Assembly: GCA_047602425.1 (NCBI GenBank)
Contig: JASGHG010000001.1
Coordinates: 2,368,001 to 2,432,000 of the forward strand
Source of the DNA: Nibricoccus sp.
GTDB taxonomy: Bacteria > Verrucomicrobiota > Verrucomicrobiia > Opitutales > Opitutaceae
Length of the DNA: 64,000 bases
Direction of reading: 5' to 3'
Shown here: piece by piece, positions 18,243 to 63,006 of the stretch
Position numbering within the stretch: position 1 is the first letter of the stretch
Layout of the letters: each line of letters opens with the position of its first letter
Notes under the pieces: generated by a model
The model's input: the letters and a program-made list of their open reading frames with translations, nothing else
What the model was told of the DNA's origin: nothing
The model's database searches: none
Program-made: the position numbers and the translations under genes

Positions 18243-18551
18243 TGGTGGGCCCACTGGGATTCGAACCCAGAACCAAAGGATTATGCTTACCACTTCGACT
18301 TTTGCCGCCGGATTTTTATTCGGAAATCCGTGCGTGGTCTGGACCATGCCTTCGCCGTGACATTGCTGTTTTAGGCGGGTGATTATGGTCTCTACACCTT
18401 CACGTATTCGAGAAACGACTACGTGCTTGGCTCGGCGTTGGGTCGTCCTTGCGGACAGGCCGTTCACCGAATTTACACCTGACAACCGGCGCGTTTCCAC
18501 GCCGGCGACCCGAATCTGAGTCCTCTGCTCTAACCGTTGAGCTATAGGCCC
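18243..18551 (-). tRNA. tRNA-Ile2(CAU), intron-containing (exons 18551-18519 and 18285-18243)
   Basis: Joined exons give GGGCCTATAGCTCAACGGTTAGAGCAGAGGACT-CAT-AATCCTTTGGTTCTGGGTTCGAATCCCAGTGGGCCCACCA; ileX-like body. Confidence 0.88.
18286..18518 (-). ncRNA. Group I self-splicing intron (233 nt) at tRNA position 33/34
   Basis: 5' exon ends in U pairing with G in P1 (GACU/GGUC); terminal G; P AAATTCGGTGAA, Q AACGCCGAGC, R GTAGAGACCATAA, S AAGGCATGGTCC. Confidence 0.88.
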
Positions 18552-18702: not shown

Positions 18703-19614
18703 TCACTTTAGCTGTAGAACTCTGCGTAGTTCTGCGACCAGATGAGCGGCACCAGGACGAATCGCGACAAGGCGCGGATTCCAAACGAGCACGATGGGAC
18801 GTTTCAACTGCTCGAGGATCTTGGACTCGATCACGACGTAGTCCACGGGCGCGAGGTCGGTCAATGCTAGCTTTGGCAAGATGGCGGCAAAGTGGCCCGA
18901 GCGAACTGCACTCAGTGCGTGAGGGAACGATTGGCAAGCGATGGTGGGAGCGAAAGCCGCGCCGCATTCCTCAGTTAGTGCACGAAGTTTTTGTGCGAAT
19001 TGGCCGTCGGTTGTTTGGGCGACGAGCGGGACTTTGGCTAGAACCTCTTCCAGCGTGAGCTGTTGAACTCGTGATACGAGTTTGCGGGGAACGACAGCCA
19101 CAAATGGAACATCTCCCAATGGTGCCGACTTGAGGCCTTCGCCAACCGCGTCGCGGCGGATCAGGCCGAAGTCGATGCGGCCATCGTTCAGTTGCTGGAC
19201 GATTTCGTTCGTGCGGTGATTGTAGGTAGAGAATCGCATCGGCGTTTTTCCGTGTGAAACTTGGCCGAGCCGTGGGAGCACTAACCATTGAAGCAGGTTG
19301 TCGCCGGCTGCTATACTGTACTCGACGCAGCCCGCATGGCATTCCGAGCGGAAATCCTGTAGCGATCGTAGTTGGTTGCGGGCGAGTTCTGCCAGGCGTG
19401 CGCCTTGAACGGTGAGTTTGAGGATTTTTCCCTGCCGCTTAGTGACTTCGACGCCAAAGAATTCAGAGAGCTCGCGCAATTGACGGCTATATTGGCTCTG
19501 GCGAATGGGATCGCCAGGAGCTGCTTGGGCAATGCTGCCTGCGTCCTGAACTTCAACCAAGACCTTGAGTCGGTCGAGGGATAGACCGCGTTCTGCGAAG
19601 AGAGTGTCAAACAT
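18703..19614 (-). CDS. LysR family transcriptional regulator (copy 1)
   Basis: GSIAQAA..QSQYSRQLRELSEFFG HTH, LTVQG, IDFGL; divergent from the array. Confidence 0.88.
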   Translation of the reverse strand: MFDTLFAERGLSLDRLKVLVEVQDAGSIAQAAPGDPIRQSQYSRQLRELSEFFGVEVTKRQGKILKLTVQGARLAELARNQLRSLQDFRSECHAGCVEYSIAAGDNLLQWLVLPRLGQVSHGKTPMRFSTYNHRTNEIVQQLNDGRIDFGLIRRDAVGEGLKSAPLGDVPFVAVVPRKLVSRVQQLTLEEVLAKVPLVAQTTDGQFAQKLRALTEECGAAFAPTIACQSFPHALSAVRSGHFAAILPKLALTDLAPVDYVVIESKILEQLKRPIVLVWNPRLVAIRPGAAHLVAELRRVLQLK

Positions 19615-20336: not shown

Positions 20337-20413
20337 CGCCTTGTCGTCTAACAGCATAGGATCCCGGAATTTCAAACCGAGGGATGGGGGTGCGAATCCC
20401 GTCGAGGCGACCA
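20337..20413 (+). tRNA. tRNA-Glu(UUC)
   Basis: CGCCTTG/CGAGGCG stem, loop ATTTCAA, CCA; weak anticodon stem. Confidence 0.7.
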
Positions 20414-20521
20414 TTTTGTTCGAACAAGCGCCGGTTCTTAGTCCGAGACCGGAGTGCGCAGTCCCCATCGGATTTCCCGCGAGCCAGTCGGCGGCCAATG
20501 CCGGCAGGGGAATATTTCCAT

Positions 20522-20595
20522 GCGTGTGTGGCGTAACAGCAACGTGCCGGTCTGCCAGTCCGGAGTTCCGAGTGCGATCCTCGGCATGCGCACCA
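20522..20595 (+). tRNA. tRNA-Gly(GCC)
   Basis: Cloverleaf, loop CTGCCAG, CCA. Confidence 0.8.
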
Positions 20596-20602
20596 TTTTC
20601 AT

Positions 20603-20693
20603 GCGCCGGTCCCCATAGCAGCGATTGGTCCAGACTTTTAATCTGGAGAGCCGCAACGCTCCAACGGGGGTGCAAGTCCCTCTCGGCGCACCA
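20603..20693 (+). tRNA. tRNA-Lys(UUU) anticodon with long variable arm
   Basis: CCAGA-CTTTTAA-TCTGG, variable arm GAGC-CGCAAC-GCTC, CCA. Confidence 0.75.
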
Positions 20694-20713
20694 ATTTAAT
20701 AGATACAATTTAC

Positions 20714-20791
20714 GCACGTCGAGGGAGCCAGTGAACCCGGCTGCCTGCAAAGCAGTGTTTCAGCACGGTGCGACACCGTGGACGTGCTCCA
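20714..20791 (+). tRNA. tRNA-Cys(GCA)
   Basis: Loop CTGCAAA, U73, CCA. Confidence 0.82.
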
Positions 20792-20799
20792 TTTCATTT

Positions 20800-20874
20800 G
20801 GGGATATGGCCGAGTTAGTAAGGCATCCGCCCTGCAAGCGGACCATGAGGGTGCGAATCCCTCTGTCTCCACCA
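20800..20874 (+). tRNA. tRNA-Ala(UGC)
   Basis: G3:U70 pair, loop CCTGCAA, CCA. Confidence 0.82.
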
Positions 20875-20912
20875 ATCTTTCCCCCGGTTTTGCGCGAGTG
20901 GGCCGGGTTCAA

Positions 20913-20987
20913 GCCTGAGAGGTGTTGATAGATACACGACCGTCTTCCAAGCGGATGTAGCCGGCGCGATACCGGCCTCGGGCACCA
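20913..20987 (+). tRNA. tRNA-Gly(UCC)
   Basis: Loop CTTCCAA, CCA. Confidence 0.78.
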
Positions 20988-20994
20988 TTTTTAT

Positions 20995-21072
20995 AGCAGG
21001 ATGGAGGAGCGGCCGTCCTCACCAGCCTCATAAGCTGCGAGATCGCTGGTTCAAATCCAGCTCCTGCTACCA
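20995..21072 (+). tRNA. tRNA-Met(CAU), initiator-like
   Basis: Loop CTCATAA, canonical GG D-loop and TTCAAAT T-loop, CCA. Confidence 0.82.
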
Positions 21073-21078
21073 TTTCAT

Positions 21079-21153
21079 ACGGACGTGGCAGACAAGCAAT
21101 GCAGCGGTCTCCAAAACCGCCTTATGGGGGAGCGATACCCTCCGTCCGTGCCA
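21079..21153 (+). tRNA. tRNA-Trp(CCA)
   Basis: GCGGT-CTCCAAA-ACCGC, G73, CCA. Confidence 0.82.
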
Positions 21154-21250
21154 ATTTGCAATATGAAGAGTAACACTTCGCCGAGGGCGAAGGACGAGTA
21201 AAAGTCTCGTTGAAGCAATGTGCGGCTCCGCGTTCAGCGGGGCTGTATCT

Positions 21251-21326
21251 GGAGGTTAGGCCGATCTAGTGATGGCACGTGGTTGAAGCCCACGAGAGCG
21301 CGGCGCAAAACCGCGAGCCTCCACCA
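21251..21326 (+). tRNA. tRNA-Phe(GAA)
   Basis: CGTGG-TTGAAGC-CCACG, CCA. Confidence 0.8.
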
Positions 21327-21334
21327 ATTTTCAT

Positions 21335-21410
21335 CGGGGTGTAGCGTAGCAGCCAACGCGCTCGGCTTGGGACCGAAAGATCGCAGGTGCAACTCCTGTC
21401 ATCCCGACCA
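21335..21410 (+). tRNA. tRNA-Pro(UGG)
   Basis: CGGGGTG start, loop CTTGGGA, CCA. Confidence 0.85.
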
Positions 21411-21416
21411 GTTTTC

Positions 21417-21635
21417 CAGGTGTGTGGCCCAGTCAGCGGGGCACCGGCCCGTGACGCCGGGGACGGAGCGAAGCGGAGATGGGGCCGCCGATAAGCGGAG
21501 GGCGTCATCCCCGAGCGTAGCGAGCCAAATGGGTGCAATTGACTCGTATTCGACAAGCGGATACTCGGGCCTTCGGCCCGCACCTGCGGTGCGCCGTTCC
21601 GCGTAGGAACCACGCTCCACCCACCCACCTGACCA
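21417..21635 (+). pseudogene. tRNA-His(GUG) interrupted by two palindromic insertions (21464-21527, 21540-21619)
   Basis: Removing the insertions essentially restores the uninterrupted copy at 58069-58144. Confidence 0.75.
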
Positions 21636-21639
21636 TTTC

Positions 21640-21716
21640 GCTCGTGGAGGCGAAGTAGTCGAGGCAACCCTCTGTCTGAGGGGAGTAAGCCGGTGCGAGT
21701 CCGGTCGCGAGCGCCA
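21640..21716 (+). tRNA. tRNA-Asp(GUC)
   Basis: Loop CTGTCTG, G73, CCA. Confidence 0.75.
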
Positions 21717-21723
21717 ATTCTAT

Positions 21724-21800
21724 CGAGGCGTAGCCAAGCAGCTAAGGCAGCTGGCCTACACCCAGCCATTCCGGGGGTGCAAGTCCCTCCGCCTCGACCA
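21724..21800 (+). tRNA. tRNA-Val(UAC)
   Basis: GCTGG-CCTACAC-CCAGC, CCA. Confidence 0.8.
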
Positions 21801-21806
21801 TTTGAT

Positions 21807-21881
21807 TCTGGAGTAGTTCAGCAGCAGAACGCCTGGCTGTTAACCAGGATGTCGCAGGGGCAGAACCTGCCTCCAGAGCCA
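21807..21881 (+). tRNA. tRNA-Asn(GUU)
   Basis: CCTGG-CTGTTAA-CCAGG, G73, CCA. Confidence 0.85.
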
Positions 21882-21885
21882 TTTT

Positions 21886-21961
21886 CGTCGGCGAGACGGC
21901 CAGTGAAGTCACCTGCCCGACATGCAGGCAACGCTCGGTGCGACACCGAGGCCGACGACCA
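21886..21961 (+). tRNA. tRNA-Val(GAC)
   Basis: CCTGC-CCGACAT-GCAGG, CCA. Confidence 0.75.
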
Positions 21962-22055
21962 TTTCCTTAGTTGTGTCGGAGGATTGGGCACAGCGAGGAG
22001 ATCAACTGGCCCGGCCACAGGCCGGAGACGAGTGCCTCCGCTCCGCCAGCACCAT

Positions 22056-22130
22056 CCGGACGTAGTGTAGCAGCAACATACTCGCCTCGGACGCGAGTGA
22101 CCGAGGGTGCAAATCCCTCCGTCCGGACCA
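22056..22130 (+). tRNA. tRNA-Pro(CGG)
   Basis: CTCGC-CTCGGAC-GCGAG, CCA. Confidence 0.82.
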
Positions 22131-22136
22131 ATTTTT

Positions 22137-22211
22137 TGCGGTGTCGTCTAACACGCAGGACAGCGGACTTTGAATCCGTTTGTGGAGGTGCGAATCCTCC
22201 CGCCGCAGCCA
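22137..22211 (+). tRNA. tRNA-Gln(UUG)
   Basis: GCGGA-CTTTGAA-TCCGT, U1-A72, CCA. Confidence 0.85.
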
Positions 22212-22215
22212 GCCT

Positions 22216-22355
22216 TGGTCACAAGCTTTAATAGTTAAGCCGCCGGCTCTTAACCGGCAGAACTCGGAGCATTTGACTCGCGCATACGCGCTCGGGGCCT
22301 TGCCCCTAACCTGCTGGTTAGCCGCTCCGCGTTGCTCCGCCGAGGCGGCCCACCA
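22216..22355 (+). tRNA. tRNA-Lys(CUU) with 66-nt T-loop insertion (22274-22339)
   Basis: GCCGG-CTCTTAA-CCGGC; T stem CTCGG/CCGAG flanks the insertion. Confidence 0.7.
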
Positions 22356-22356
22356 T

Positions 22357-22433
22357 GGCTCGATGGCGCAGCATGTAGCGCAGCTCCCTCATAACGAGAA
22401 GGTCGCGGGGTGCGAATCCCGCTCGAGCCCCCA
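22357..22433 (+). tRNA. tRNA-Met(CAU), elongator-like
   Basis: GGCTCGA/TCGAGCC stem, loop CTCATAA, CCA. Confidence 0.72.
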
Positions 22434-22440
22434 TTTTCAA

Positions 22441-22528
22441 CGGGACGTGGCAGAGCAGCAAATGCAACGCACTGTAAATGCGTCGGCTTTACAGCCTATC
22501 ACTGGTGCAAGTCCAGTCGGCCCGACCA
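22441..22528 (+). tRNA. tRNA-Tyr(GUA)
   Basis: ACGCA-CTGTAAA-TGCGT, long variable arm, CCA. Confidence 0.85.
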
Positions 22529-22643
22529 CTTTCTCGGTCTCATGGGTGCCAACAACTCATGCTTTTGTCGGTTAAGGTTAAAACCGGCCAGCAGTTCTGG
22601 TGGATCAGAGCAATCGTTAGGTTTTTGCGTAAAAAACCAGTTT

Positions 22644-22719
22644 GCCTCTTAAGCATAGTTAGCGATGCAACTTCTTGGTAAGGAGTAGATGGTCGGCGCA
22701 CATCCGACAGGAGGCTCCA
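22644..22719 (+). tRNA. tRNA-Thr(GGU)
   Basis: Loop TTGGTAA, GCC start, CCA. Confidence 0.8.
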
Positions 22720-22726
22720 ATTTCAT

Positions 22727-22884
22727 GCGAGCGTGGCGGAATAGCATACGCGCCGGCCCGAGATGCCGGTGAGCGCAAGCTCATGAGGGTGCGATTGACT
22801 CGTATTCGACGAGCGAATACTCGGGCCTGCGGCCCATGCCTGACGGCATGCCGTTCCGCTTCGCTTCACCCTTCGTTCGCACCA
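22727..22884 (+). tRNA. tRNA-Leu(GAG) with 73-nt T-loop insertion (22796-22868)
   Basis: CCGGC-CCGAGAT-GCCGG, variable arm, A73, CCA. Confidence 0.72.
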
Positions 22885-22890
22885 ATTTAT

Positions 22891-22980
22891 CGCGGCGTGG
22901 TTGGAATTAGTATACACAGCGGTCTCAAAATCCGCTGGGCTTCAACGCCCGTGCCGGTGCGAGTCCGGTCGCCGCGACCA
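22891..22980 (+). tRNA. tRNA-Leu(CAA)
   Basis: Loop CTCAAAA, variable arm, CCA. Confidence 0.82.
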
Positions 22981-22981
22981 T

Positions 22982-23069
22982 GCGGCTGTGTGTGGAAAAG
23001 TAGACCAGGCGGTTTTAAAAACCGCTGCGCCTCTGGCGCGTGGGCGTGCAAGTCGCCCCAGCCGCACCA
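22982..23069 (+). tRNA. tRNA-Leu(UAA)
   Basis: GCGGT-TTTAAAA-ACCGC, variable arm, CCA. Confidence 0.8.
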
Positions 23070-23078
23070 ATTTGATAT

Positions 23079-23165
23079 CGGCAAGTGATGGAACAAGCAT
23101 ACACGCGAGTCTCAGAAACTCGAGGGCGCGAGCCTGTGCAGGTGCAAATCCTGTCTTGCCGACCA
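23079..23165 (+). tRNA. tRNA-Leu(CAG)
   Basis: CGAGT-CTCAGAA-ACTCG, variable arm, CCA. Confidence 0.82.
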
Positions 23166-23174
23166 TTTTACTAT

Positions 23175-23251
23175 CGCCCTGTCCTCTAACGAGCACAGGA
23201 GACCCGTTTCTCAAATGGGCAATGTGGGTGCAAGTCCCATCGGGGCGACCA
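23175..23251 (+). tRNA. tRNA-Glu(CUC)
   Basis: CCCGT-TTCTCAA-ATGGG, CCA. Confidence 0.8.
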
Positions 23252-23255
23252 TTGA

Positions 23256-23347
23256 CGCCGCGTAGTTCAAAGTGAACCGTCCGCCTTATAAACGGAATCG
23301 CGCTAGATGAGCGCCAGGCCCGGGAGCGTTACCCGGCGCGGCGACCA
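23256..23347 (+). tRNA. tRNA-Ile(UAU) with long variable arm
   Basis: TCCG-C-CTTATAA-A-CGGA, variable arm GCGCT-AGATG-AGCGC, A73, CCA. Confidence 0.72.
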
Positions 23348-23351
23348 ATTT

Positions 23352-23418
23352 GGGGCAGTGAGAACAGGGGTACTTCGTTCGAAACACGTCAAACAACACC
23401 TTGTTCATGTTTCTCCTC
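23352..23418 (+). ncRNA. Short Y-RNA-like motif unit
   Basis: GGCAGTGAG..TACTTCG..TTCTCC, shared with the units upstream of TROVE in copy 2. Confidence 0.55.
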
Positions 23419-23425
23419 AATATAT

Positions 23426-23500
23426 GCCTCTTATGCGTAGTTAGCGACGCGCGGCGCTTGTACCGCTGAAAGGCCGGCGCAAATCCGGCAGGAGGCTCCA
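23426..23500 (+). tRNA. tRNA-Thr(UGU)
   Basis: Loop CTTGTAC, CCA. Confidence 0.8.
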
Positions 23501-23504
23501 ATTT

Positions 23505-23579
23505 CTCCCTGTAGTGAAATAGCTATCACACGGCTCTGCGAAGGCCGAGATCCAGGTGCAAGTCCCGGCAGGGGGACCA
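23505..23579 (+). tRNA. tRNA-Arg(GCG)
   Basis: CGGCT-CTGCGAA-GGCCG, CCA. Confidence 0.78.
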
Positions 23580-23587
23580 TTTTTCAG

Positions 23588-23662
23588 CTCTGCGTGGTGA
23601 AATTATTATCATGTCGTGCTTCGAACGCGTCGTTGTGGCTGGGATTCCCGCCGCAGAGTCCA
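23588..23662 (+). tRNA. tRNA-Arg(UCG)
   Basis: Loop CTTCGAA, CCA; T stem imperfect in this copy. Confidence 0.68.
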
Positions 23663-23704
23663 ATCTCGTTGTATCTATGCCGTGGTTTATTGCGGCGATA
23701 TTTT

Positions 23705-23777
23705 CTCCGCGTGGCCGAGAAGCTCAGGCCTCCGCCTTCTAAGCGGATCGACGCAGGTGCAAATCCTGTCGCGGAGA
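23705..23777 (+). tRNA. tRNA-Arg(UCU)
   Basis: TCCGC-CTTCTAA-GCGGA; no encoded CCA. Confidence 0.8.
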
Positions 23778-23783
23778 CTTTAC

Positions 23784-23874
23784 GGAGGCGAAATCGGACA
23801 AGCGTGCCGACAACCGTTTGAAGCGGTCAGGGCGACTGCGTGTCGCTGGGGAGCATGACCTCTCGCCTCCGCCA
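23784..23874 (+). tRNA. tRNA-Ser(UGA)
   Basis: GGAG start, loop TTTGAAG, variable arm, G73, CCA. Confidence 0.75.
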
Positions 23875-23880
23875 ATCTTT

Positions 23881-23966
23881 GGAGAGTAAAGCCGTGAAGC
23901 GCGGCGACCGGTTGGAAGCCGGCTCGGACCTCCGGGTCTGTGGGGCGGAACCACTGCTCTCCGCCA
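23881..23966 (+). tRNA. tRNA-Ser(GGA)
   Basis: Loop TTGGAAG, variable arm, G73, CCA. Confidence 0.72.
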
Positions 23967-23974
23967 AATTTGAT

Positions 23975-24200
23975 GGAGAGTGAATCCGCCGAGGTGCGGA
24001 CACTGTTTCGACGAAGCGAAGCGGAGATGGATCGACCGAAGGTCGACCCGCAGGGTGAGCGTAGCGAATCAAAGCAGATGGATTGCCGGCACAAAGACTC
24101 CGCTTTGTTCGTCGTGTTGCCCGCGTTGCGGGCGCCCACGCGACTACCCCTCGCTTCGCTCAGGGCTGCGCCATCTTCGTGCTGCGCACTCCGTCCGCCA
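23975..24200 (+). pseudogene. tRNA-Ser(CGA) disrupted by insertions at 24012-24071 and 24106-24193
   Basis: Comparison with the intact copy at 62743-62832. Confidence 0.75.
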
Positions 24201-24204
24201 TCTT

Positions 24205-24278
24205 CCTCGTGTAGCTCAAAAGCAGAGCAATCGGCTGATAACCGATCGACGTCGGAGCGTTACCGAATGCGAGGACCA
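24205..24278 (+). tRNA. tRNA-Ile(GAU)
   Basis: ATCGG-CTGATAA-CCGAT, CCA. Confidence 0.82.
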
Positions 24279-24285
24279 TTTTTTC

Positions 24286-24373
24286 GGAGGGTTAATCCCG
24301 AGAGTCGGAAGCCGCGGTGCTAACGCGTGCGGCGGTGAAAGCCGCTGAGGGGCAGGACCTCAACCCTCCGCCA
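24286..24373 (+). tRNA. tRNA-Ser(GCU)
   Basis: Loop GTGCTAA, variable arm, G73, CCA. Confidence 0.72.
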
Positions 24374-24379
24374 TTTTTC

Positions 24380-24488
24380 ATCGCGTGTGCGATTGACTCG
24401 TTTTCGCTAAAGCGAAACTCGGGGCCTTGCCCCGCACCTGCTGGTGCGCCGCTCCGCGCTCGATGAGCGTTGCGCATGCCCGGCAGCA
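24380..24488 (+). pseudogene. tRNA-Gln(CUG) remnant: 5' half missing, T-loop insertion 24394-24474
   Basis: 3' part matches the intact gene at 63007-63080. Confidence 0.7.
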
Positions 24489-24496
24489 TTTTTCAC

Positions 24497-24571
24497 TCTC
24501 TGCAAGCATAGGCAGCGATGCAGCGGTTTCGTAAACCGCAGAGGCCGGCGCACACCCGGCGCGGAGATCCA
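24497..24571 (+). tRNA. tRNA-Thr(CGU)
   Basis: GCGGT-TTCGTAA-ACCGC, CCA. Confidence 0.8.
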
Positions 24572-25327: not shown

Positions 25328-25396
25328 AACCCTGCGGTGGGGGAGTGGCCCAAGCCGACTCAACGACTTATCGCCTTTTCCGCAGGGCTAACTTCC

Positions 25397-26104
25397 ATGA
25401 ACACCGAATCAACATCTTCCATCGGGATCTCCGATGTCCTCGACATCGTAGATACTGCCCTGGCGACGATCTCCCGTCGTTTGCCGGTCCATGTTGGTCG
25501 TGAAGACTTGGCCACTGTTGGCAAGCTCGCGCTCATATCTGCGCTGGGCCAGTGCAGTGGTTCGGTCAGCGAGGTTCGCGCTTACTGCTTCGTGCGTGTG
25601 CGCGGTGCAATTCTGGACGAACTGCGCCGCCTCGATCCGCTTTCGCGCCGCCGCCGTGAACAAGTGACGGCGGTTGTTCGCGCCCAGGCAGAACTGAGCG
25701 CGCGCTTCAGCCGTGCAGCCACGCGGGCTGAAATCGCGGTGGCGACAAAACTGTCCATTGCCGAGGTCGCGGCCGTGCAGCACATGCTCGCTCAGGAATC
25801 GGAGTTTTCAGAAACGGAATTGGACATGTTGCCGGACACGGTAGCGCCAACGCCGGCTGAAACTTCTGAAACCGAGGACCTGCGTTTAAATCTGCGTGGC
25901 GCACTTCAACGGCTGTCAGGCAACCAGGCAGCGGTTCTGTACCGCTATTACTTCGATGAAGTGACGCTCGATGTAATCGCGGCCGAGATGGGCCTCTCGA
26001 AAGAGCGTGTCCGTCAGATCCGCGACGCCGGTGAGAAAAAACTCCGTGCTGACTTCATCGTCCTGTCGATCTGGCAGTCACTCTTTAATCACAGCCGGGA
26101 TTAG
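25397..26104 (+). CDS. Sigma-70 family sigma factor (FliA/WhiG-like)
   Basis: RVRGAILDELRRLD, region 4 TLDVIAAEMGLSKERVRQI. Confidence 0.85.
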   Translation: MNTESTSSIGISDVLDIVDTALATISRRLPVHVGREDLATVGKLALISALGQCSGSVSEVRAYCFVRVRGAILDELRRLDPLSRRRREQVTAVVRAQAELSARFSRAATRAEIAVATKLSIAEVAAVQHMLAQESEFSETELDMLPDTVAPTPAETSETEDLRLNLRGALQRLSGNQAAVLYRYYFDEVTLDVIAAEMGLSKERVRQIRDAGEKKLRADFIVLSIWQSLFNHSRD

Positions 26105-27599: not shown

Positions 27600-29146
27600 A
27601 TGAATATGGAAATCAAAGCCCGTGATCTCGTTGCTGCCGGTTGGCATGAAGGCCGCCGCCTGGGCGCTGCTCTCCGCCGCGCACGTGATCTCGAATCCAC
27701 TGGAATTTCTCGCGCCGAAGTGCTCGTTCAACTCGAACAAGAATTTCCAAAGCAACTCGCCGTGATTCTTCCGCGCTATGAGCCGGCTCCGCTGGCCGAA
27801 GCGATCGAAGCTACCACACCGGAAGAAGCGACCAACGTTACCTCGGCCCGTCAGCGCATGCTCGAACTTCTCCACGTCCCGGTGGTGAAGCGCGGAAGCA
27901 TCATGCCGGACGCCTGCCCGTCGGGTGGTGGTCGTGCCACGATTCCGGTTGGGGGAGCCATCGAAGTCGAGAATGCCATCATTCCCGGCGCTCACTCGGC
28001 TGATATCTGCTGCTCGATGTACGCATCCTTTTTCCCGGCCAACCATCCGGTGGGCGAAATGATGGATCATCTTCAGAAGACCACGCACTTCGGTGCGGGT
28101 GGTCGTGCACGCGGTCAGCAATGGACCACGTCGGTGGTGGAAGAGCCGGTTTGGGATAACCCTTTCCTTTCCGGACTGCGTAGCCGGGCCAGGATTTCAT
28201 GGGAACCCAAGGCGACGGAAATCATTTCGCCTATGTCGGACGTATCCAGTTTACGGATGCGCAACGCGCTGCGCTTGAATCCGCCGGCTATACCGAACTC
28301 ACCGAATGGATCGTGCGCCGCGACGGTGAATTCAACGTCCTCGTGACTCACCACGGTTCGCGTGGTCTCGGTGCTGATGTGTACAAACGCGGCCAGAAAG
28401 CTGCCCGCAAATGGTGTGACGAAAACGCCAAAGATATTCCCGACGCAGCTGTCTGGTTGCCGTACGATTCTCCGGATGGCTCCGCTTACTGGGACGCGTT
28501 GCAGTACGTATCTCGCTGGACGCGTGAAAACCACGCCCAGATCCATGCCGCCTTCCTGCGTCGCTTGGGTCAGCGTGGCCTCGTGCAAATCGGCAACGAG
28601 CACAACTTTGTTTGGAAACGCGGAGATTCTTTCTTCCACGGAAAGGGTGCTACGCCGGCGTGGAAAGACGCGCAGGGCCGTCCGCTGCTCGGAATTATTC
28701 CGCTTAACATGGCCCGTGAAATCCTCCTCGTACTTGGTTCGGACAACAACAACTACCTGTCGTTCTGTCCGCACGGCGCTGGTCGCAACCTGTCGCGCTC
28801 GGCCATGCTGCGTCCTTACAAAGACGTGGACGGTGAAATCGATCCGGCACTCGTGCAGAAGACCCTGGCCGAAACCACGGCCGGGCTTGATATCCGTTGG
28901 TTCAATGGCGCACCGGATTTGTCCGAGTCTCCGCTCGGCTACAAAAACGCTACGCAGGTGAAGGCGCAGATCGACCGCTTTGGTTTGGCCACGGTGGTTG
29001 GCGAAATCCAACCGCGCGGTTGCATAATGGCCGGCGAAGCTCCGGAACCGCCATGGGCTCGTGCTCGCCGCGAAAAACGCGCTGCCCACAAAGCCATGCG
29101 CCGCGAAGGTGAAGCTGAGGCGGCTGAAAGTGCGCGAACTTTGTGA
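27600..29146 (+). pseudogene. rtcB: RtcB family RNA ligase, frameshifted near 28190
   Basis: MPDACP, IPVGG, SADICCS in the first frame; GTQGDGNHF, VTHHGSRG, NEHNFV, HGKGAT, PHGAGR in the second frame. Confidence 0.88.
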
Positions 29147-56986: not shown

Positions 56987-57064
56987 CGCCTTGTCGTCTA
57001 ACAAGCACAGGATCCCGGAATTTCAAACCGAGGGATGCGGGTGCGAATCCCGTCGAGGCGACCA
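56987..57064 (+). tRNA. tRNA-Glu(UUC)
   Basis: Homolog of 20337. Confidence 0.7.
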
Positions 57065-57173
57065 GTTTGTTCGAACAAGCGCCGGTTCTTAATCCGAGAC
57101 CGGAGTGCGCAGTCCCTATCGGATTTCCAAGGAGCCAACCGGCGGCCAAAGCCGGCAGGGGATAATTTCCAAT

Positions 57174-57247
57174 GCGCGTGTGGCGTAACAGCAACGTGCC
57201 GGTCTGCCAGTCCGGAGTTCCGAGTGCGATCCTCGGCATGCGCACCA
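57174..57247 (+). tRNA. tRNA-Gly(GCC)
   Basis: Loop CTGCCAG, CCA. Confidence 0.8.
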
Positions 57248-57254
57248 TTTTTAT

Positions 57255-57345
57255 GCGCCGGTACCCATAGCAGCGATTGGTCCAGACTTTTAATCTGGAG
57301 AGCCGCAATGCTCCACCGGGGGTGCAAGTCCCTCTCGGCGCACCA
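57255..57345 (+). tRNA. tRNA-Lys(UUU) with long variable arm
   Basis: Loop CTTTTAA, CCA. Confidence 0.75.
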
Positions 57346-57366
57346 TTTTAATAGATACAATTTCCT

Positions 57367-57444
57367 GCACGTCGAGGGAGCCAGCGAACCCAGCTGCCTG
57401 CAAAGCAGTGTTTCAGCACGGTGCGACACCGTGGACGTGCTCCA
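57367..57444 (+). tRNA. tRNA-Cys(GCA)
   Basis: Loop CTGCAAA. Confidence 0.8.
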
Positions 57445-57453
57445 TTTTAGTTT

Positions 57454-57528
57454 GGGGATATGGCCGAGTTAGAAAGGCATCCGCCCTGCAAGCGGACCAT
57501 GAGGGTGCGAATCCCTCTATCTCCACCA
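57454..57528 (+). tRNA. tRNA-Ala(UGC)
   Basis: G3:U70, loop CCTGCAA. Confidence 0.82.
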
Positions 57529-57564
57529 ATTTCCCCCGGTTTTGCGCGAGTGGGCCGGGTTCAA

Positions 57565-57639
57565 GCCTGAGAGGTGTTGATAGATACACGACCGTCTTCC
57601 AAGCGGATGTAGCCGGCGCGATACCGGCCTCGGGCACCA
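57565..57639 (+). tRNA. tRNA-Gly(UCC)
   Basis: Loop CTTCCAA. Confidence 0.78.
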
Positions 57640-57646
57640 TTTTTAT

Positions 57647-57724
57647 AGCAGGATGGAGGAGCGGCCGTCCTCACCAGCCTCATAAGCTGCGAGATCGCTG
57701 GTTCAAATCCAGCTCCTGCTACCA
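57647..57724 (+). tRNA. tRNA-Met(CAU), initiator-like
   Basis: Loop CTCATAA. Confidence 0.82.
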
Positions 57725-57730
57725 TTTCAT

Positions 57731-57805
57731 ACGGACGTGGCAGACAAGCAATGCAGCGGTCTCCAAAACCGCCTTATGGGGGCGCGATACCCTCCGTCCG
57801 TGCCA
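57731..57805 (+). tRNA. tRNA-Trp(CCA)
   Basis: Loop CTCCAAA. Confidence 0.82.
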
Positions 57806-57902
57806 ATTTGCAATATGAAGAGTAACACTTCGCCAAGGGCGAAGGACGAGTAAAAGTCTCGTTGAAGCAATAAACGGTACTGTGTCGAACGGTGCTGTTT
57901 TT

Positions 57903-57978
57903 GGAGGTTAGGCCGATCTAGTGATGGCACGTGGTTGAAGCCCACGAGAGCGCGGCGCGAAACCGCGAGCCTCCACCA
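57903..57978 (+). tRNA. tRNA-Phe(GAA)
   Basis: Loop TTGAAGC. Confidence 0.8.
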
Positions 57979-57987
57979 ATTTGTTAT

Positions 57988-58063
57988 CGGGGTGTAGCGT
58001 AGCAGCCAACGCGCTCGGCTTGGGACCGAAAGATCGCAGGTGCAACTCCTGTCACCCCGACCA
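57988..58063 (+). tRNA. tRNA-Pro(UGG)
   Basis: Loop CTTGGGA. Confidence 0.85.
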
Positions 58064-58068
58064 ATTTT

Positions 58069-58144
58069 CAGGTGTGTGGCCCAGTTAGCGGGGCACCGGC
58101 CCGTGAAGCCGGGGAAATGGGTGCAAATCCCATCCACCTGACCA
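58069..58144 (+). tRNA. tRNA-His(GUG), atypical acceptor stem
   Basis: CCGGC-CCGTGAA-GCCGG; A73 and no G-1. Confidence 0.7.
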
Positions 58145-58148
58145 CTCC

Positions 58149-58225
58149 GCTCGTGGAGCCGAAGTAGTCGAGGCAACCCTCTGTCTAAGGGAAGTCAGCC
58201 GGTGCGAGTCCGGTCACGAGCGCCA
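58149..58225 (+). tRNA. tRNA-Asp(GUC)
   Basis: Loop CTGTCTA. Confidence 0.75.
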
Positions 58226-58231
58226 ATTTTT

Positions 58232-58308
58232 CGAGGCGTCGCCTAGTAGCTATGGCAGCTGGCCTACATCCAGCCATTCCGGGGGTGCAAGTCCCTCCGC
58301 CTCGACCA
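58232..58308 (+). tRNA. tRNA-Val(UAC)
   Basis: Loop CCTACAT. Confidence 0.8.
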
Positions 58309-58309
58309 T

Positions 58310-58384
58310 TGCCGAGTAGCACAACAGTAGTGCGACGCCCTGTTAAGGCGCTAGGTGCAAGTGCGAATCTTGCCTCGGCAGCCA
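58310..58384 (+). tRNA. tRNA-Asn(GUU), different sequence from copy 1
   Basis: CGCC-CTGTTAA-GGCG, G73, CCA. Confidence 0.82.
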
Positions 58385-58389
58385 TTTTT

Positions 58390-58465
58390 CGTCGGCGAGA
58401 CGGCCAGTGAAGTCACCTGCCCGACATGCAGGCATCGCTCGGTGCGACACCGAGGCCGACGACCA
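58390..58465 (+). tRNA. tRNA-Val(GAC)
   Basis: Loop CCGACAT. Confidence 0.75.
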
Positions 58466-58559
58466 TGTCCTTAGCTGTGTCGGAGGGTTGGGCACAGCGA
58501 GGAGATCAGCTGGCCCGGCGATAAGCCGGAGACGAGTGCCTCCGCTCCGCCAGCACCAT

Positions 58560-58634
58560 CCGGATGTAGTGTAGCAGCAACACGCTCGCCTCGGACGCGA
58601 GTGACCGAGGGTGCAACTCCCTCCGTCCGGACCA
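58560..58634 (+). tRNA. tRNA-Pro(CGG)
   Basis: Loop CTCGGAC. Confidence 0.82.
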
Positions 58635-58640
58635 ATTTAT

Positions 58641-58715
58641 TGCGGTGTCGTCTAACACGTAGGACAGCGGACTTTGAATCCGTTTGTGGAGGTGCGAATC
58701 CTCCCGCCGCAGCCA
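58641..58715 (+). tRNA. tRNA-Gln(UUG)
   Basis: Loop CTTTGAA. Confidence 0.85.
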
Positions 58716-58719
58716 GCTT

Positions 58720-58859
58720 GGGTCGCAAGCTTTAATCGTGAAGCAGCCGGCTCTTAACCGGCAGAACTCGGAGCATTTGACTCGCGCGTACGCGCTCGGG
58801 GCCTTGCCCCTAACCTGCTGGTTAGCCGCTCCGCGTTGCTCCGCCGAGGCGGCCCACCA
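58720..58859 (+). tRNA. tRNA-Lys(CUU) with T-loop insertion (58778-58843)
   Basis: Loop CTCTTAA; same insertion as copy 1. Confidence 0.7.
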
Positions 58860-58860
58860 T

Positions 58861-58936
58861 GGCTCGATGGCGCAGCATGTAGCGCAGCTCCCTCATAAGG
58901 AGAAGGTCGCGGGTGCGAATCCCGCTCGAGCCCCCA
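58861..58936 (+). tRNA. tRNA-Met(CAU), elongator-like
   Basis: CTCC-CTCATAA-GGAG. Confidence 0.8.
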
Positions 58937-58943
58937 TTTTCAG

Positions 58944-59031
58944 CGGGACGTGGCAGAGCAGCAAATGCAACGCACTGTAAATGCGTCGGCTTCACAGCCT
59001 ATCACTGGTGCAAGTCCAGTCGGCCCGACCA
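58944..59031 (+). tRNA. tRNA-Tyr(GUA)
   Basis: Loop CTGTAAA, variable arm. Confidence 0.85.
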
Positions 59032-59146
59032 CTTTCTCAGTCTCATGGGTGCCAACAACTCATGCTTTTGTCGGTAAAGGTTAAAACCGGCCAGCAGTTC
59101 TGGTGGATCAGAGCAATCGTTAGGTTTTCGCGTAAAAAACCGTTAT

Positions 59147-59222
59147 GCCTCTTAAGCATAGTTAGCGATGCAACTCCTTGGTAAGGAGTAGATGGTCGGC
59201 GCACATCCGACAGGAGGCTCCA
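59147..59222 (+). tRNA. tRNA-Thr(GGU)
   Basis: Loop TTGGTAA. Confidence 0.8.
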
Positions 59223-59228
59223 TTTTAT

Positions 59229-59386
59229 GCGAGCGTGGCGGAATAGCATACGCGCCGGCCCGAGATGCCGGTGAGCGCAAGCTCATGAGGGTGCGATTGA
59301 CTCGTATTCGGCGAGCGAATACTCGGGCCTGCGGCCCACGCCTGACGGCATGCCGTTCCGCTTCGCTTCACCCTCCGTTCGCACCA
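59229..59386 (+). tRNA. tRNA-Leu(GAG) with T-loop insertion (59298-59370)
   Basis: Loop CCGAGAT; same insertion as copy 1. Confidence 0.72.
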
Positions 59387-59392
59387 ATTTAT

Positions 59393-59482
59393 CGCGGCGT
59401 GGTTGGAATCAGTATACACAGCGGTCTCAAAATCCGCTGGGCTTCAACGCCCGTGCCGGTGCGAGTCCGGCCGCCGCGACCA
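59393..59482 (+). tRNA. tRNA-Leu(CAA)
   Basis: Loop CTCAAAA. Confidence 0.82.
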
Positions 59483-59483
59483 T

Positions 59484-59571
59484 GCGGCTGTGTGTGGAAA
59501 AGTAGACCGAGCGGTTTTAAAAACCGCTGCGCCTCTGGCGCGTGGGCGTGCAAGTCGCCCCAGCCGCACCA
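59484..59571 (+). tRNA. tRNA-Leu(UAA)
   Basis: Loop TTTAAAA. Confidence 0.8.
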
Positions 59572-59580
59572 ATTTACTAT

Positions 59581-59667
59581 CGGCAAGTGGTGGAACAAGC
59601 ATACACGCGAGTCTCAGAAACTCGAGGGCGCGAGCCTGTGCAGGTGCAAATCCTGTCTTGCCGACCA
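59581..59667 (+). tRNA. tRNA-Leu(CAG)
   Basis: Loop CTCAGAA. Confidence 0.82.
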
Positions 59668-59676
59668 TTTTTCTAT

Positions 59677-59753
59677 CGCCCTGTCCTCTAACGAGCACAG
59701 GAGACCCGTTTCTCAAATGGGCAATGTGGGTGCGAGTCCCATTGGGGCGACCA
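59677..59753 (+). tRNA. tRNA-Glu(CUC)
   Basis: Loop TTCTCAA. Confidence 0.8.
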
Positions 59754-59757
59754 TTGA

Positions 59758-59849
59758 CGCCGCGTAGTTCAAAGTGAACCGTCCGCCTTATAAACGGAAT
59801 CGCGCTAGATGAGCGCCAGGCCCGGGAGCGTTACCCGGCGCGGCGACCA
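59758..59849 (+). tRNA. tRNA-Ile(UAU) with long variable arm
   Basis: Loop CTTATAA; same as copy 1. Confidence 0.72.
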
Positions 59850-59854
59850 ACTTT

Positions 59855-59922
59855 GGGGTAGTGAGGACAGGGTTACTTCGTTCGAAACACGACAAAACAA
59901 CACCTTGTTCAGATTTCTCCTC
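59855..59922 (+). ncRNA. Y-RNA-like unit 1 (short)
   Basis: GGTAGTGAG..TACTTCG..TTCTCC motif. Confidence 0.55.
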
Positions 59923-59929
59923 AAAATAT

Positions 59930-60004
59930 GCCTCTTATGTGTAGTTATCGACGCGCGGCGCTTGTACCGCTGATAGGCCGGCGCAAATCCGGCAGGAGGC
60001 TCCA
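59930..60004 (+). tRNA. tRNA-Thr(UGU)
   Basis: Loop CTTGTAC. Confidence 0.78.
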
Positions 60005-60009
60005 ATTTT

Positions 60010-60140
60010 CGGGTAGTGAGATCAGGGATACTTCGCCTCCTAAGCGCGTGGTTGTCGGTTCGAGTCCGGCCCTCTCCAAAATTCACGGGGAGGTAGCTCA
60101 ATGGTAGAGCACGTTAAACGCCCTGGCCGGTTTTCTCCCG
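60010..60140 (+). ncRNA. YrlA-like Y RNA, unit 2
   Basis: Motif stem encloses T arm (GTCGG-TTCGAGT-CCGGC), closed acceptor stem, then D arm (TAGCTCAATGGTAGAGCA): permuted tRNA order. Confidence 0.75.
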
Positions 60141-60148
60141 AAACAATT

Positions 60149-60307
60149 TTCTGGGTAGTGAAGGTAGAGATACTTCGCCACCAAAGCGACGCGACCGCTA
60201 TTCCCCGTGCCCGCCGGCAAGCTGGGCTGCGAATACGAGCGCTGGTCCATTGAGCAATCGGTGGATCAGAAGGGCTCTAGGGGAGCTTTGCCTGTTTTCT
60301 CCCAGAA
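60149..60307 (+). ncRNA. Y-RNA-like unit 3
   Basis: TTCTGGG/CCCAGAA closing stem and shared motif. Confidence 0.6.
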
Positions 60308-60312
60308 TAGTT

Positions 60313-60446
60313 TTGGAGGCAGTGAGCGTGCGGATACTTCGGAGAACGCGCTCGCCTAGAGGCGAGAGATTGCAGGTTCAACCCCTGCTCGTGTCGGCAA
60401 CGATACGATGGCGGAATCAAACGCTGCTCGCGACTCTCTCCTCCAA
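60313..60446 (+). ncRNA. Y-RNA-like unit 4
   Basis: TTGGAGG/CCTCCAA stem, shared motif, T arm GCAGG-TTCAACC-CCTGC. Confidence 0.65.
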
Positions 60447-60451
60447 TTCCT

Positions 60452-60602
60452 TTGAAGGTAGTGAGAACGCGGATACTTCTGGTAATGCACGCAAGTGCCA
60501 TGGTTCAAATCCATACACCGCGTTCGGTTTTGGCGCGTTTCACGCGGTCCTGCGGACTCCACCTTCGGTGGCCCCATCTCCGCTACGCTCCGTCTCCTTC
60601 AA
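60452..60602 (+). ncRNA. Y-RNA-like unit 5 (palindromic insertion at 60531-60592)
   Basis: TTGAAGG/CCTTCAA stem, shared motif, T arm ATGG-TTCAAAT-CCAT. Confidence 0.6.
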
Positions 60603-60609
60603 TCAATTT

Positions 60610-60743
60610 TGCGGGTAGTGAGTGTATAGCTACTTCGGACTGAACGGTCGGTGGTTCGATCCCACCTGCGCTTCGGCGCATAGCTCAGTGGTAAGAGCAT
60701 TCAGCGGCCGCAAGGCCGTATCTGTGCACGTAGTTCTCCCGCA
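60610..60743 (+). ncRNA. YrlA-like Y RNA, unit 6
   Basis: T arm GGTGG-TTCGATC-CCACC, acceptor TGCGC-TTCG-GCGCA, D arm TAGCTCAGTGGTAAGAGCA. Confidence 0.78.
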
Positions 60744-60824
60744 TTACCACCGTGTCCCGGCGCTCCGGGTTTGTCTCGCCGCGAGAGATCATCTCGTGGC
60801 CCTAAAAAGAAAAAGGAGGCCATC

Positions 60825-62264: not shown

Positions 62265-62281
62265 ACGCCTAAATCTCCTAC

Positions 62282-62309
62282 GGAGCCGAACATAGTTCGG
62301 TTCCTTTTT
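62282..62309 (+). terminator. Terminator-like hairpin after TROVE
   Basis: GGAGCCGAAC-ATA-GTTCGGTTCC followed by TTTTT. Confidence 0.6.
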
Positions 62310-62384
62310 CTTCCTGTAGTGAAACAGCTATCACGCGGCTCTGCGAAGGCCGAGATCCAGGTGCAAGTCCCGGCAGGAGGACCA
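62310..62384 (+). tRNA. tRNA-Arg(GCG)
   Basis: Loop CTGCGAA. Confidence 0.78.
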
Positions 62385-62394
62385 ATTTTCAATA

Positions 62395-62469
62395 CTCTGC
62401 GTGGTGAAATTATTATCATGTCGCGCTTCGAACGCGTAGTTGCGGGTGGGATTCCTGCCGCAGAGGCCA
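62395..62469 (+). tRNA. tRNA-Arg(UCG)
   Basis: CGCG-CTTCGAA-CGCG. Confidence 0.75.
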
Positions 62470-62473
62470 TTTT

Positions 62474-62546
62474 CTCCGCGTGGCCGAGAAGCTCAGGCCT
62501 CCGCCTTCTAAGCGGATCGACGCAGGTGCAAATCCTGTCGCGGAGA
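62474..62546 (+). tRNA. tRNA-Arg(UCU)
   Basis: Loop CTTCTAA; no encoded CCA. Confidence 0.8.
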
Positions 62547-62552
62547 CTTTAC

Positions 62553-62643
62553 GGAGGTGAAATCGGACAAGCGTGCCGACAGCCGTTTGAAGCGGTCAGG
62601 GCGACTGTTTGTCGCTGGGGAGCATGCCCTCTCGCCTCCGCCA
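62553..62643 (+). tRNA. tRNA-Ser(UGA)
   Basis: Loop TTTGAAG. Confidence 0.75.
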
Positions 62644-62649
62644 ATCTTT

Positions 62650-62735: not shown

Positions 62736-62742
62736 AATGTGT

Positions 62743-62832: not shown

Positions 62833-62837
62833 TTTTT

Positions 62838-63005: not shown

Positions 63006-63006
63006 T

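Follow-up and report, generated by a model that had tools for sequence, protein, structure and literature searches.

A supernumerary tRNA array of Nibricoccus sp. with an A18/G55 elbow, a probable second natural design for locking the tRNA L-shape

The stretch of the Nibricoccus sp. (Opitutaceae) genome analysed here (assembly GCA_047602425.1, contig JASGHG010000001.1, positions 2,368,001 to 2,432,000; 64,000 nucleotides, hereafter the window) carries at positions 20337-24571 a tRNA array in which G18 of the D-loop and U55 of the T-loop are replaced nearly throughout by A18 and G55. The array is a tRNA L-array in the sense of PMC8421152, a horizontally acquired set of spare tRNAs. Judged from sequence comparison, positions 18 and 55 appear to form a real alternative tertiary pair in which A18 is matched to G55, and the best explanation of the data as a whole, with a probability of about 0.7, is that the array elbow represents a second natural design for locking the tRNA L-shape.

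The array, 4.2 kb long, opens with the first nucleotide of a tRNA-Glu, closes with the CCA end of a tRNA-Thr and includes 33 uninterrupted tRNA genes, together with five broken by insertions (His, Lys-CUU, Leu-GAG, Ser-CGA and Gln-CUG). The genes were delimited by an elbow-blind cloverleaf parser, in which positions 18, 19 and 54-58 are unscored, with an added read-out of the 3' end, the Cys and Ile-UAU genes being completed by hand; default ARAGORN and Rfam each recovered 16/33 of the uninterrupted genes, and 20 in union. An encoded CCA terminates 32 of the 33. G55 is present in 32/33, the exception, and the single G18·U55 elbow (1/33), being the CAU tRNA at 20995 with G18G19 and TTCAAAT. Among the 32 G55 tRNAs, position 18 is A in 30, C in one (Gln-UUG, 22137), U in one (Met-CAU, 22357) and G in none, with the assignments of Ile-UAU and Arg-UCG made by hand. 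Their 54:58 combinations are U:A (20), C:A (3), A:U (3), G:G (3), C:C (2) and A:A (1), which brings U54·A58 to 21/33 for all uninterrupted genes, position 57 is A or G in 32/32 loops, and a pyrimidine 54 closes on A58 in 23/32 (690/882 in related loci). The 19-56 pair is kept, as G19/C56 in 32/33, where the caller presumes G19 if position 56 is C, and as U19/G56 in Arg-UCG. Identity elements are also retained, namely G3·U70 in Ala and U73 in Cys and Thr. All host tRNAs (45/45, that is 44 outside the arrays and an intron-split tRNA-Ile2) have G18 and U55, so that G55 occurs in 32/33 array versus 0/45 host genes (Fisher p 4e-21, the genes not being independent), and YrlA-like RNA units at 60021-60130 and 60626-60728 retain GGTTCGA and the D-loop GG. 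An earlier note on this DNA had described D-loop AG in most array tRNAs and a canonical state for the Met tRNA at 20995, the host tRNA-Ile2 and the YrlA-like units, all of which our counts bear out; its three T-loop forms (TGCRA, CGCRA and AGC for TTCRA) capture the change to G55 but understate the variety of the loops.

The same note claimed that positions 18 and 55 covary, which a single canonical tRNA in one array cannot show, but which holds across other loci. Loci with at least three tRNAs on one strand (155 loci, 1,725 unique tRNAs) were pooled from G55-pattern-seeded genome and viral loci, a U55-pattern-seeded viral control, family arrays and Nostoc; 109/120 genome loci with fewer than three tRNAs were taken as chance pattern matches and excluded. 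Seeding on G55 biases the class frequencies, not position 18. The pool contains 596 A18·G55 and 927 G18·U55 tRNAs and only nine crossed forms (A18·U55 7, G18·G55 2), with G18·C55 (17), C18·G55 (17) and U18·G55 (6) as minor combinations and 145 tRNAs set aside (68 ambiguous and 77 with uncalled D-loops). A18 is thus found in 596/621 called G55 tRNAs, and A18·G55 occurs in 10/823 tRNAs of the U55-seeded control. In the 18 mixed loci, 270/270 tRNAs are concordant at 18/55, against 176±6 (maximum 200) under a within-locus permutation null (5,000 permutations). With 1,580 sequences aligned and weighted, the mutual information of 18-55 after average product correction reaches 0.80 bits, the top value among non-helix pairs (Levitt pair 15-48, 0.56), with at most 0.06 between 18 or 55 and their next-best partners. 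In this mutual-information form, the covariation check over homologous arrays suggested with the earlier note came out positive. Disjoint close pairs of the same anticodon differing at 18 or 55 number 116, including 89 full-state switches, and of the 60 independent contrasts with support in per-isotype trees built without the elbow columns, 59.7 point the same way and 0 the opposite way, with supported switches in all 20 isotypes. Initiator-type A18/G55 tRNAs are present on the viral contigs L128, L288, L344 and L348, and the idea that initiator tRNAs are incapable of switching was rejected on this ground. No G55 was found among the parsed plus-strand tRNAs of five model phage or plasmid regions (CcrBL10, S-CBWM1, JimJam, pACHL01 and a Tsukamurella plasmid), 5 of 93 matching records of cultured phages and plasmids.

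The alternative 18-55 tertiary pair put forward in the earlier note is supported by this covariation and by a riboswitch precedent. T-loops of FMN and cobalamin riboswitches follow the consensus (YGNRA)NY (UGNRA 88.7%, CGNRA 10.9%), an A from the partner loop intercalating and contacting the position-2 G on its sugar edge through two hydrogen bonds; as stated there, this consensus excludes tRNA T-loops, in which position 2 is U (bioRxiv 2022.12.26.521914, citing PDB 4FRG). The array loops resemble this motif in that loop position 2 is G, position 4 is a purine, position 1 is mostly a pyrimidine, positions 6-7 are bulged and, as judged by covariation, an A from another loop is the partner; they differ in keeping the 19-56 pair and in also allowing A54:U58, G54:G58 and C54:C58. 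With the canonical elbow (G18·Ψ55, G19-C56, U54·A58) they share the 7-nt T-loop, G53-C61, purine 57, the 19-56 pair and a purine at 18, but A18/G55 makes pseudouridine (Ψ) 55 and methylated G18 (Gm18) impossible, and 54:58 is relaxed. Mapping the riboswitch motif on the tRNA, A18 with G55, leads to the expectation that position 54 admits C, and this was borne out: where A58 is required, C54 is present in 64/698 tRNAs of the G55 class, a share close to that of riboswitch CGNRA, versus 6/1,009 of the U55 class (U54 in 623/698 and 995/1,009, respectively). Without the A58 filter, 54:58 is U:A in 626/882 G55 versus 989/1,031 U55 tRNAs, and the 882 include A54:U58 (87), G54:G58 (65) and C54:C58 (21), nearly all with A18. 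Where position 56 is not C (Arg-UCG genes with G56 or A56), position 19 is mostly the complementary U or C. By analogy, the A18-G55 elbow very probably has the geometry of riboswitch T-loops. The T-loop would take the YGNRA form, with G55 assuming the U-turn role of pseudouridine 55; A18 would intercalate between 57 and 58 and bond the G55 sugar edge, and the outer 19-56 pair, the stacking platform for the ribosome, RNase P and synthetases, would be preserved.

The window holds two copies of a LysR-array-HNH module (~18600-25400 and ~55160-64000), 36.5 kb apart and 86-97% identical, in the gene order divergent LysR, tRNA array, HNH, sigma factor, RtcB. Copy 2 additionally holds TROVE and YrlA-like RNAs; copy 1 is without this block and has more broken genes. 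The features are as follows (strand as + or -, basis of the call in brackets).
18551..18243, -, host tRNA-Ile2(CAU), G18/U55, intron-split; control outside the array
18703..19614, -, LysR-family regulator, divergent from the array (Pfam); LysR heads 9/13 related loci sampled
20337..20413, +, tRNA-Glu(UUC), A18/G55, imperfect stems (parser, 3'-end read-out)
20522..20595, +, tRNA-Gly(GCC), A18/G55 (parser)
20603..20693, +, tRNA-Lys(UUU), long variable arm, A18/G55 (parser, 3'-end read-out)
20714..20791, +, tRNA-Cys(GCA), A18/G55, U73 (by hand)
20800..20874, +, tRNA-Ala(UGC), A18/G55, G3·U70, C33 (parser, 3'-end read-out)
20913..20987, +, tRNA-Gly(UCC), A18/G55, C54 (parser)
20995..21072, +, initiator-like tRNA(CAU), A11:U24, sole canonical G18/U55 array member (parser)
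21079..21153, +, tRNA-Trp, A18/G55, A54 (parser)
21251..21326, +, tRNA-Phe, A18/G55, C54 (parser)
21335..21410, +, tRNA-Pro(UGG), A18/G55 (parser)
21417..21635, +, tRNA-His, A18/G55, C33, two hairpin insertions (variable loop, T-loop); copy 2 intact
21640..21716, +, tRNA-Asp, A18/G55 (parser, 3'-end read-out)
21724..21800, +, tRNA-Val(UAC), A18/G55, C33 (parser)
21807..21881, +, tRNA-Asn, A18/G55, G54:G58 (parser)
21886..21961, +, tRNA-Val(GAC), A18/G55, C33 (parser)
22056..22130, +, tRNA-Pro(CGG), A18/G55 (parser)
22137..22211, +, tRNA-Gln(UUG), C18/G55 (parser)
22216..22355, +, tRNA-Lys(CUU), T-loop insertion of 66 nt, broken in both copies
22357..22433, +, elongator-type tRNA(CAU), U18/G55; A18 in most relatives (parser)
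22441..22528, +, tRNA-Tyr, A18/G55 (parser)
22644..22719, +, tRNA-Thr(GGU), A18/G55, C54:C58 (parser)
22727..22884, +, tRNA-Leu(GAG), A18/G55, C33, 74-nt insertion after A58 in both copies
22891..22980, +, tRNA-Leu(CAA), A18/G55 (parser)
22982..23069, +, tRNA-Leu(UAA), A18/G55 (parser)
23079..23165, +, tRNA-Leu(CAG), A18/G55 (parser)
23175..23251, +, tRNA-Glu(CUC), A18/G55 (parser)
23256..23347, +, tRNA-Ile(UAU)-like, A18/G55, A54:U58; D-loop short, variable arm long (by hand)
23352..23420, +, Y-RNA-like unit, similar to those ahead of TROVE in copy 2 (comparison by eye)
23426..23500, +, tRNA-Thr(UGU), A18/G55, C54 (parser)
23505..23579, +, tRNA-Arg(GCG), A18/G55 (parser)
23588..23662, +, tRNA-Arg(UCG), A18/G55, U19:G56 (position 18 by hand)
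23705..23780, +, tRNA-Arg(UCU), A18/G55, without encoded CCA (parser)
23784..23874, +, tRNA-Ser(UGA), A18/G55, A54:U58 (parser)
23881..23966, +, tRNA-Ser(GGA), A18/G55, G54:G58 (parser)
23975..24200, +, tRNA-Ser(CGA), two insertions; copy 2 intact with G55
24205..24278, +, tRNA-Ile(GAU), A18/G55, A54:U58 (parser)
24286..24373, +, tRNA-Ser(GCU), A18/G55, G54:G58 (parser)
24380..24488, +, tRNA-Gln(CUG) 3' remnant, T-loop insertion; copy 2 intact, A18/G55 (63007)
24497..24571, +, tRNA-Thr(CGU), A18/G55, C54:C58 (parser)
21464..21619, 22274..22339, 22795..22868, 24012..24190 and 24393..24470, hairpin-rich elements of the window; also in L263-L281
24692..25327, +, HNH endonuclease, 36% identical (E 2e-23) to its homologue next to the trn operon of Nostoc
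25337..26104, +, sigma-70-family factor, also kept downstream of related arrays (Pfam, neighbour scan)
28187..29026, +, RtcB RNA-ligase match, open frame of 320 aa
55266..56177, -, copy-2 LysR
56987..63162, +, array copy 2, pieces 86-97% identical, elbow pattern alike
60011..62264, +, YrlA-like RNAs (canonical GGTTCRA/GG) and TROVE inside copy 2
60825..62264, +, TROVE (Ro60) gene, inside copy 2
63278..63913, copy-2 HNH, given with copy 2

The RtcB frame of copy 1, at 320 aa, is shorter than the one that follows copy 2 (535 aa), so that copy-1 RtcB is possibly split. The array is supernumerary, the complete 5.16-Mb genome encoding 45 canonical host tRNAs outside both arrays (44 and the split tRNA-Ile2). 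Related arrays reach a best E <1e-20 in 28/300 other genomes of the family, many of which are incomplete, and in 0/4 genomes of the same genus, where the best E is 1.9e-7 or weaker; the distribution is patchy, as in L-arrays, and indicates horizontal transfer. A neighbour scan (52/79 open reading frames, 13 of 20 related regions) identified LysR at 9 loci, the sigma factor at 9, TROVE at 6 and RtcB at 6, and every named genome locus that carries such an array is from Verrucomicrobiota (11/11), one of them from Opitutus sp. A promoter scan upstream of the array gave a signal at chance level.

Most array members are likely to be working tRNAs. Position 55 varies in 0/224 orthologues and position 18 in 11/224, as against 79/224 for position 59, and both are far less variable than 16, 20 or 59. 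Stem differences among family orthologues are pair-keeping in 120 two-sided and 73 one-sided cases and broken in 38, under a score filter that prefers well-paired tRNAs. In our parse of the trn operon of Nostoc PCC 7120, two tRNAs are A18/G55 and the other 22/24 are canonical; one of the two is tRNA-Ile(GAU), reported to be aminoacylated in vivo (PMC8421152), and the other, Glu(CUC), is possibly among the three pseudogenes of the operon (PMC8421152). Leucyl-tRNA synthetase depends only modestly on G18:U55, A18/G55 not being among the pairs tested there (PMC6614811), and this fits with charging of the array tRNAs. It is most improbable that the array consists of decaying pseudogenes whose elbow pattern is drift. 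Five genes are interrupted, several stems have mismatches and recovery by ARAGORN and Rfam is low, but the identical two substitutions recur in 30/32 genes, stems are compensated, CCA ends and identity elements are kept, and the 18-55 coupling extends over 155 loci, which already largely refutes this explanation.

Several observations nevertheless weigh against the reading of the array elbow as a second natural design. The trees rest on ~66 columns and are weak, and the minimum of 221 changes exceeds the true number of origins. YrlA-like RNAs of the same transcript region retain the canonical loop, and the host has TruB, so that the advantage of the swap is not obvious. The pair-keeping stem counts are inflated by the score filter; 6/22 stem differences between copies 1 and 2 create or destroy a pair and 5/38 copy-1 genes are broken, which indicates that selection here is partly relaxed. 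The charged Nostoc tRNA-Ile(GAU) shows aberrant gel mobility (PMC8421152). Lastly, four RNA-labelled public runs give contigs of up to 33 kb over the array (run shares at most 0.18); at this length a DNA origin is possible and the contigs do not show expression.

As to what an array-wide swap could bring, folding independent of U55 and G18 modification is the likeliest advantage, although we propose it tentatively. TrmH methylates G18 (PMC7912444), and TruB and TrmA double as tRNA folding chaperones (PMC7641329). Since G55 cannot become pseudouridine, the array tRNAs are independent of TruB, and since A18 is not the G18 substrate of TrmH, they bypass both modifications. The modification independence inferred in the earlier note thus stands for TruB and is moot for TrmA, as neither TrmA nor TrmFO has a match above cut-off in the host genome. 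Compensation for a missing pseudouridine enzyme was considered and rejected, host TruB being present above cut-off. A18/G55 tRNAs would need neither U55 isomerisation nor G18 methylation to fold and would tolerate other 54:58 pairs, and such modification-free folding would suit burst synthesis under translational stress or host change.

The strongest rival to modification-independent folding, which the earlier note does not raise, sets the cause at the level of DNA: the T55 to G change would remove the T-arm target of homing endonucleases or tRNA-targeting integrases, with A18 as RNA-level compensation. This explanation is compatible with the structural model, from which it differs in cause only, and would account for the joint change of all isotypes. 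T4 SegB, a free-standing endonuclease whose gene lies in a tRNA cluster, has GGTTCRANTCC as its recognition sequence, the very T-arm DNA altered in the array, and cuts in nine tRNA genes (PMC2330249); position 55 varies less than 18 (0 vs 11 of 224), and the array HNH family adjoins 17/17 scored family arrays and 5/8 G55-rich versus 7/31 canonical viral arrays. The viral association is however weak (p 0.08), the loci being related, differently seeded 10-kb pieces, and the HNH family stands beside 2/9 mixed viral arrays and is also a neighbour of canonical arrays and of the Nostoc operon (G55 in 2/24). Moreover, GGTTCRA persists within the array, in the initiator-like tRNA and the YrlA units, and the hairpin element readily enters G55 T-loops (10/16 sense-strand matches). 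SegB is a GIY-YIG and not an HNH enzyme, the array HNH is a putative T-arm nuclease, and T4's own tRNA genes keep cleavage sites (PMC2330249). We regard it as conceivable, but rather doubtful, that mobile arrays of Verrucomicrobia and phages recoded the T-arm motif set-wide, by means of the YGNRA/A18 elbow, against nucleases or integrases that read the T-arm, among them possibly the arrays' own HNH. If true, such recoding would amount to a complete working tRNA set without pseudouridine 55, half-invisible to tRNA finders.

The swap could also be near-neutral, A18·G55 equalling G18·U55 and having spread as a few founder tRNAs were duplicated and changed their anticodons. In agreement with this, 314/596 A18·G55 tRNAs have a closer neighbour among A18·G55 tRNAs of a different isotype than among G18·U55 tRNAs of their own, and mixed arrays persist. 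On the other hand, 233/596 are nearer to canonical tRNAs of the same isotype, the best canonical match is of the same isotype in 289/596 (chance 5.8%), supported switches occur in all 20 isotypes while 0/45 host tRNAs switched, and the crossed forms are so few (9) that each switch crosses a valley. Founder effects contribute to the array-wide A18·G55 state, but neutrality as its cause seems unlikely.

Less likely still is that the swap lets the spare tRNAs survive ribonucleases of the host or of rivals and replace cleaved host tRNAs, in concert with RtcB and Ro60. VapC, PrrC and colicin tRNases cleave the anticodon loop and, to our knowledge, no bacterial RNase has been shown to need U55, both of which count against this explanation. 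The earlier note had proposed evasion of these nucleases and had listed C33 in Ala, His, both Val and Leu-GAG. The C33 residues are there, but most of the anticodon loops are of the usual kind, and within mixed arrays C33 is not linked to G55 (13/224 G55 vs 14/259 U55 tRNAs, p 0.85; overall 110/698 vs 46/1,009), which leaves the evasion unsupported. C33 is a lineage trait, and its inclusion in the elbow design was rejected for the same lack of linkage. Survival of ribonuclease attack would agree with the linkage of RtcB, TROVE and YrlA to the arrays and with the location of most such arrays found, on phage contigs or patchy islands. In Nostoc, tRNA-cutting toxins are co-induced with the operon, but cleavage is seen for operonic, not housekeeping, tRNAs (PMC8421152).

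The elements that interrupt array tRNA genes are hairpin-rich, 60-110 nt long and inserted in either orientation. In the host genome they are confined to the two arrays (BLAST), and their motif has 32 matches in 13/20 related loci, the 10 of 16 sense matches cited above lying directly after A58 of the G55 T-loop. Relative to empty sites in related contigs, the element replaces 2 nt at Leu-GAG and 1 nt at Lys-CUU; no transposase was identified for it. Before TROVE, six Y-RNA-like units stand in tandem (59850-60740) with a common GGGTAGTGAG...ATACTTCG-type stem; two of the six match YrlA, below the gathering score, and one unit is left in copy 1 (23352-23420). The intron of the host tRNA-Ile2, of ~233 nt between U33 and C34, with G at its end, is group-I-like. 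The split gene was not found by default ARAGORN or Rfam, the intron was not recognised by Rfam, and ARAGORN intron mode gave noise; a short repeat of its 3' end comes next, near 18167-18151. Among host tRNAs, tRNA-Ala(CGC) has A19/U56, and besides the split tRNA-Ile2 there are only two CAU tRNAs, the initiator-like one with U1:A72 and C73. The intact array tRNA-His (58069-58144) has A73 and is without G at -1; host tRNA-His has C73. Long variable arms are found in tRNA-Lys(UUU) (20603-20693) and in the tRNA-Ile(UAU)-like gene (23256-23347), whose UAU anticodon is rare in bacteria, and several arrays (L041, L044, L075, L282) encode a tRNA-Leu with a short, type I variable loop. Structured spacers that do not parse as tRNA are kept in both copies (20430-20515, 21160-21250, 21970-22052 and 22535-22640), the one at 21970-22052 ending in CCA and resembling a decayed tRNA. 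Between the arrays, the region 31747-51676 on the minus strand, with a MoxR-vWA-beta-propeller ternary system, an ADP-ribosylglycohydrolase, a microbial PARG, a band-7 protein and NAD-salvage genes, is a conflict or repair island.

L-arrays have been reported in phyla including Verrucomicrobia, with an 18-gene array of Opitutus terrae in the supplement (PMC8421152, Santamaría-Gómez et al. 2021). Like the trn operon of Nostoc/Anabaena PCC 7120, the present array is long, co-oriented and supernumerary, with patchy spread, a homologous HNH and RtcB linkage. Unlike that operon, which is canonical in 22/24, it has G55 in 32/33 and is linked to LysR, a sigma factor and TROVE/YrlA. The main text of PMC8421152 makes no mention of G18, U55 or the T-loop, and two elbow reviews term Ψ55 universally conserved and, in the parts covered, make no mention of A18 or G55 (PMC4810234, PMC7912444). 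The literature searched, in which subscription journals are poorly covered, does not describe any natural A18/G55 tRNA. Suppressor tRNAs selected from randomised D- and T-loops by the Steinberg laboratory in 2003-2004 reportedly include active clones with purine-purine 54-58 and a modified 18-55 juxtaposition; these are laboratory clones, not natural genes, whose modified pair may be A18/G55. If so, they would anticipate the pair as such, though not its occurrence throughout natural arrays. The L-array type and the YGNRA motif are already known, and the natural array-wide A18/G55 set appears to be new.

G18 and pseudouridine 55 are described as universally conserved, and the reason is an old question. 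A natural A18/G55 set for nearly all amino acids offers matched pairs with which to probe the roles of Ψ55, TruB and Gm18, and one A18/G55 member, reported as charged, is found in a genetically tractable cyanobacterium. The set may also provide a modification-independent scaffold for engineered tRNAs, and it affects annotation, default tools overlooking many of the array tRNA genes. Finally, it would link the T-loops of tRNAs and riboswitches as interchangeable states of one motif.

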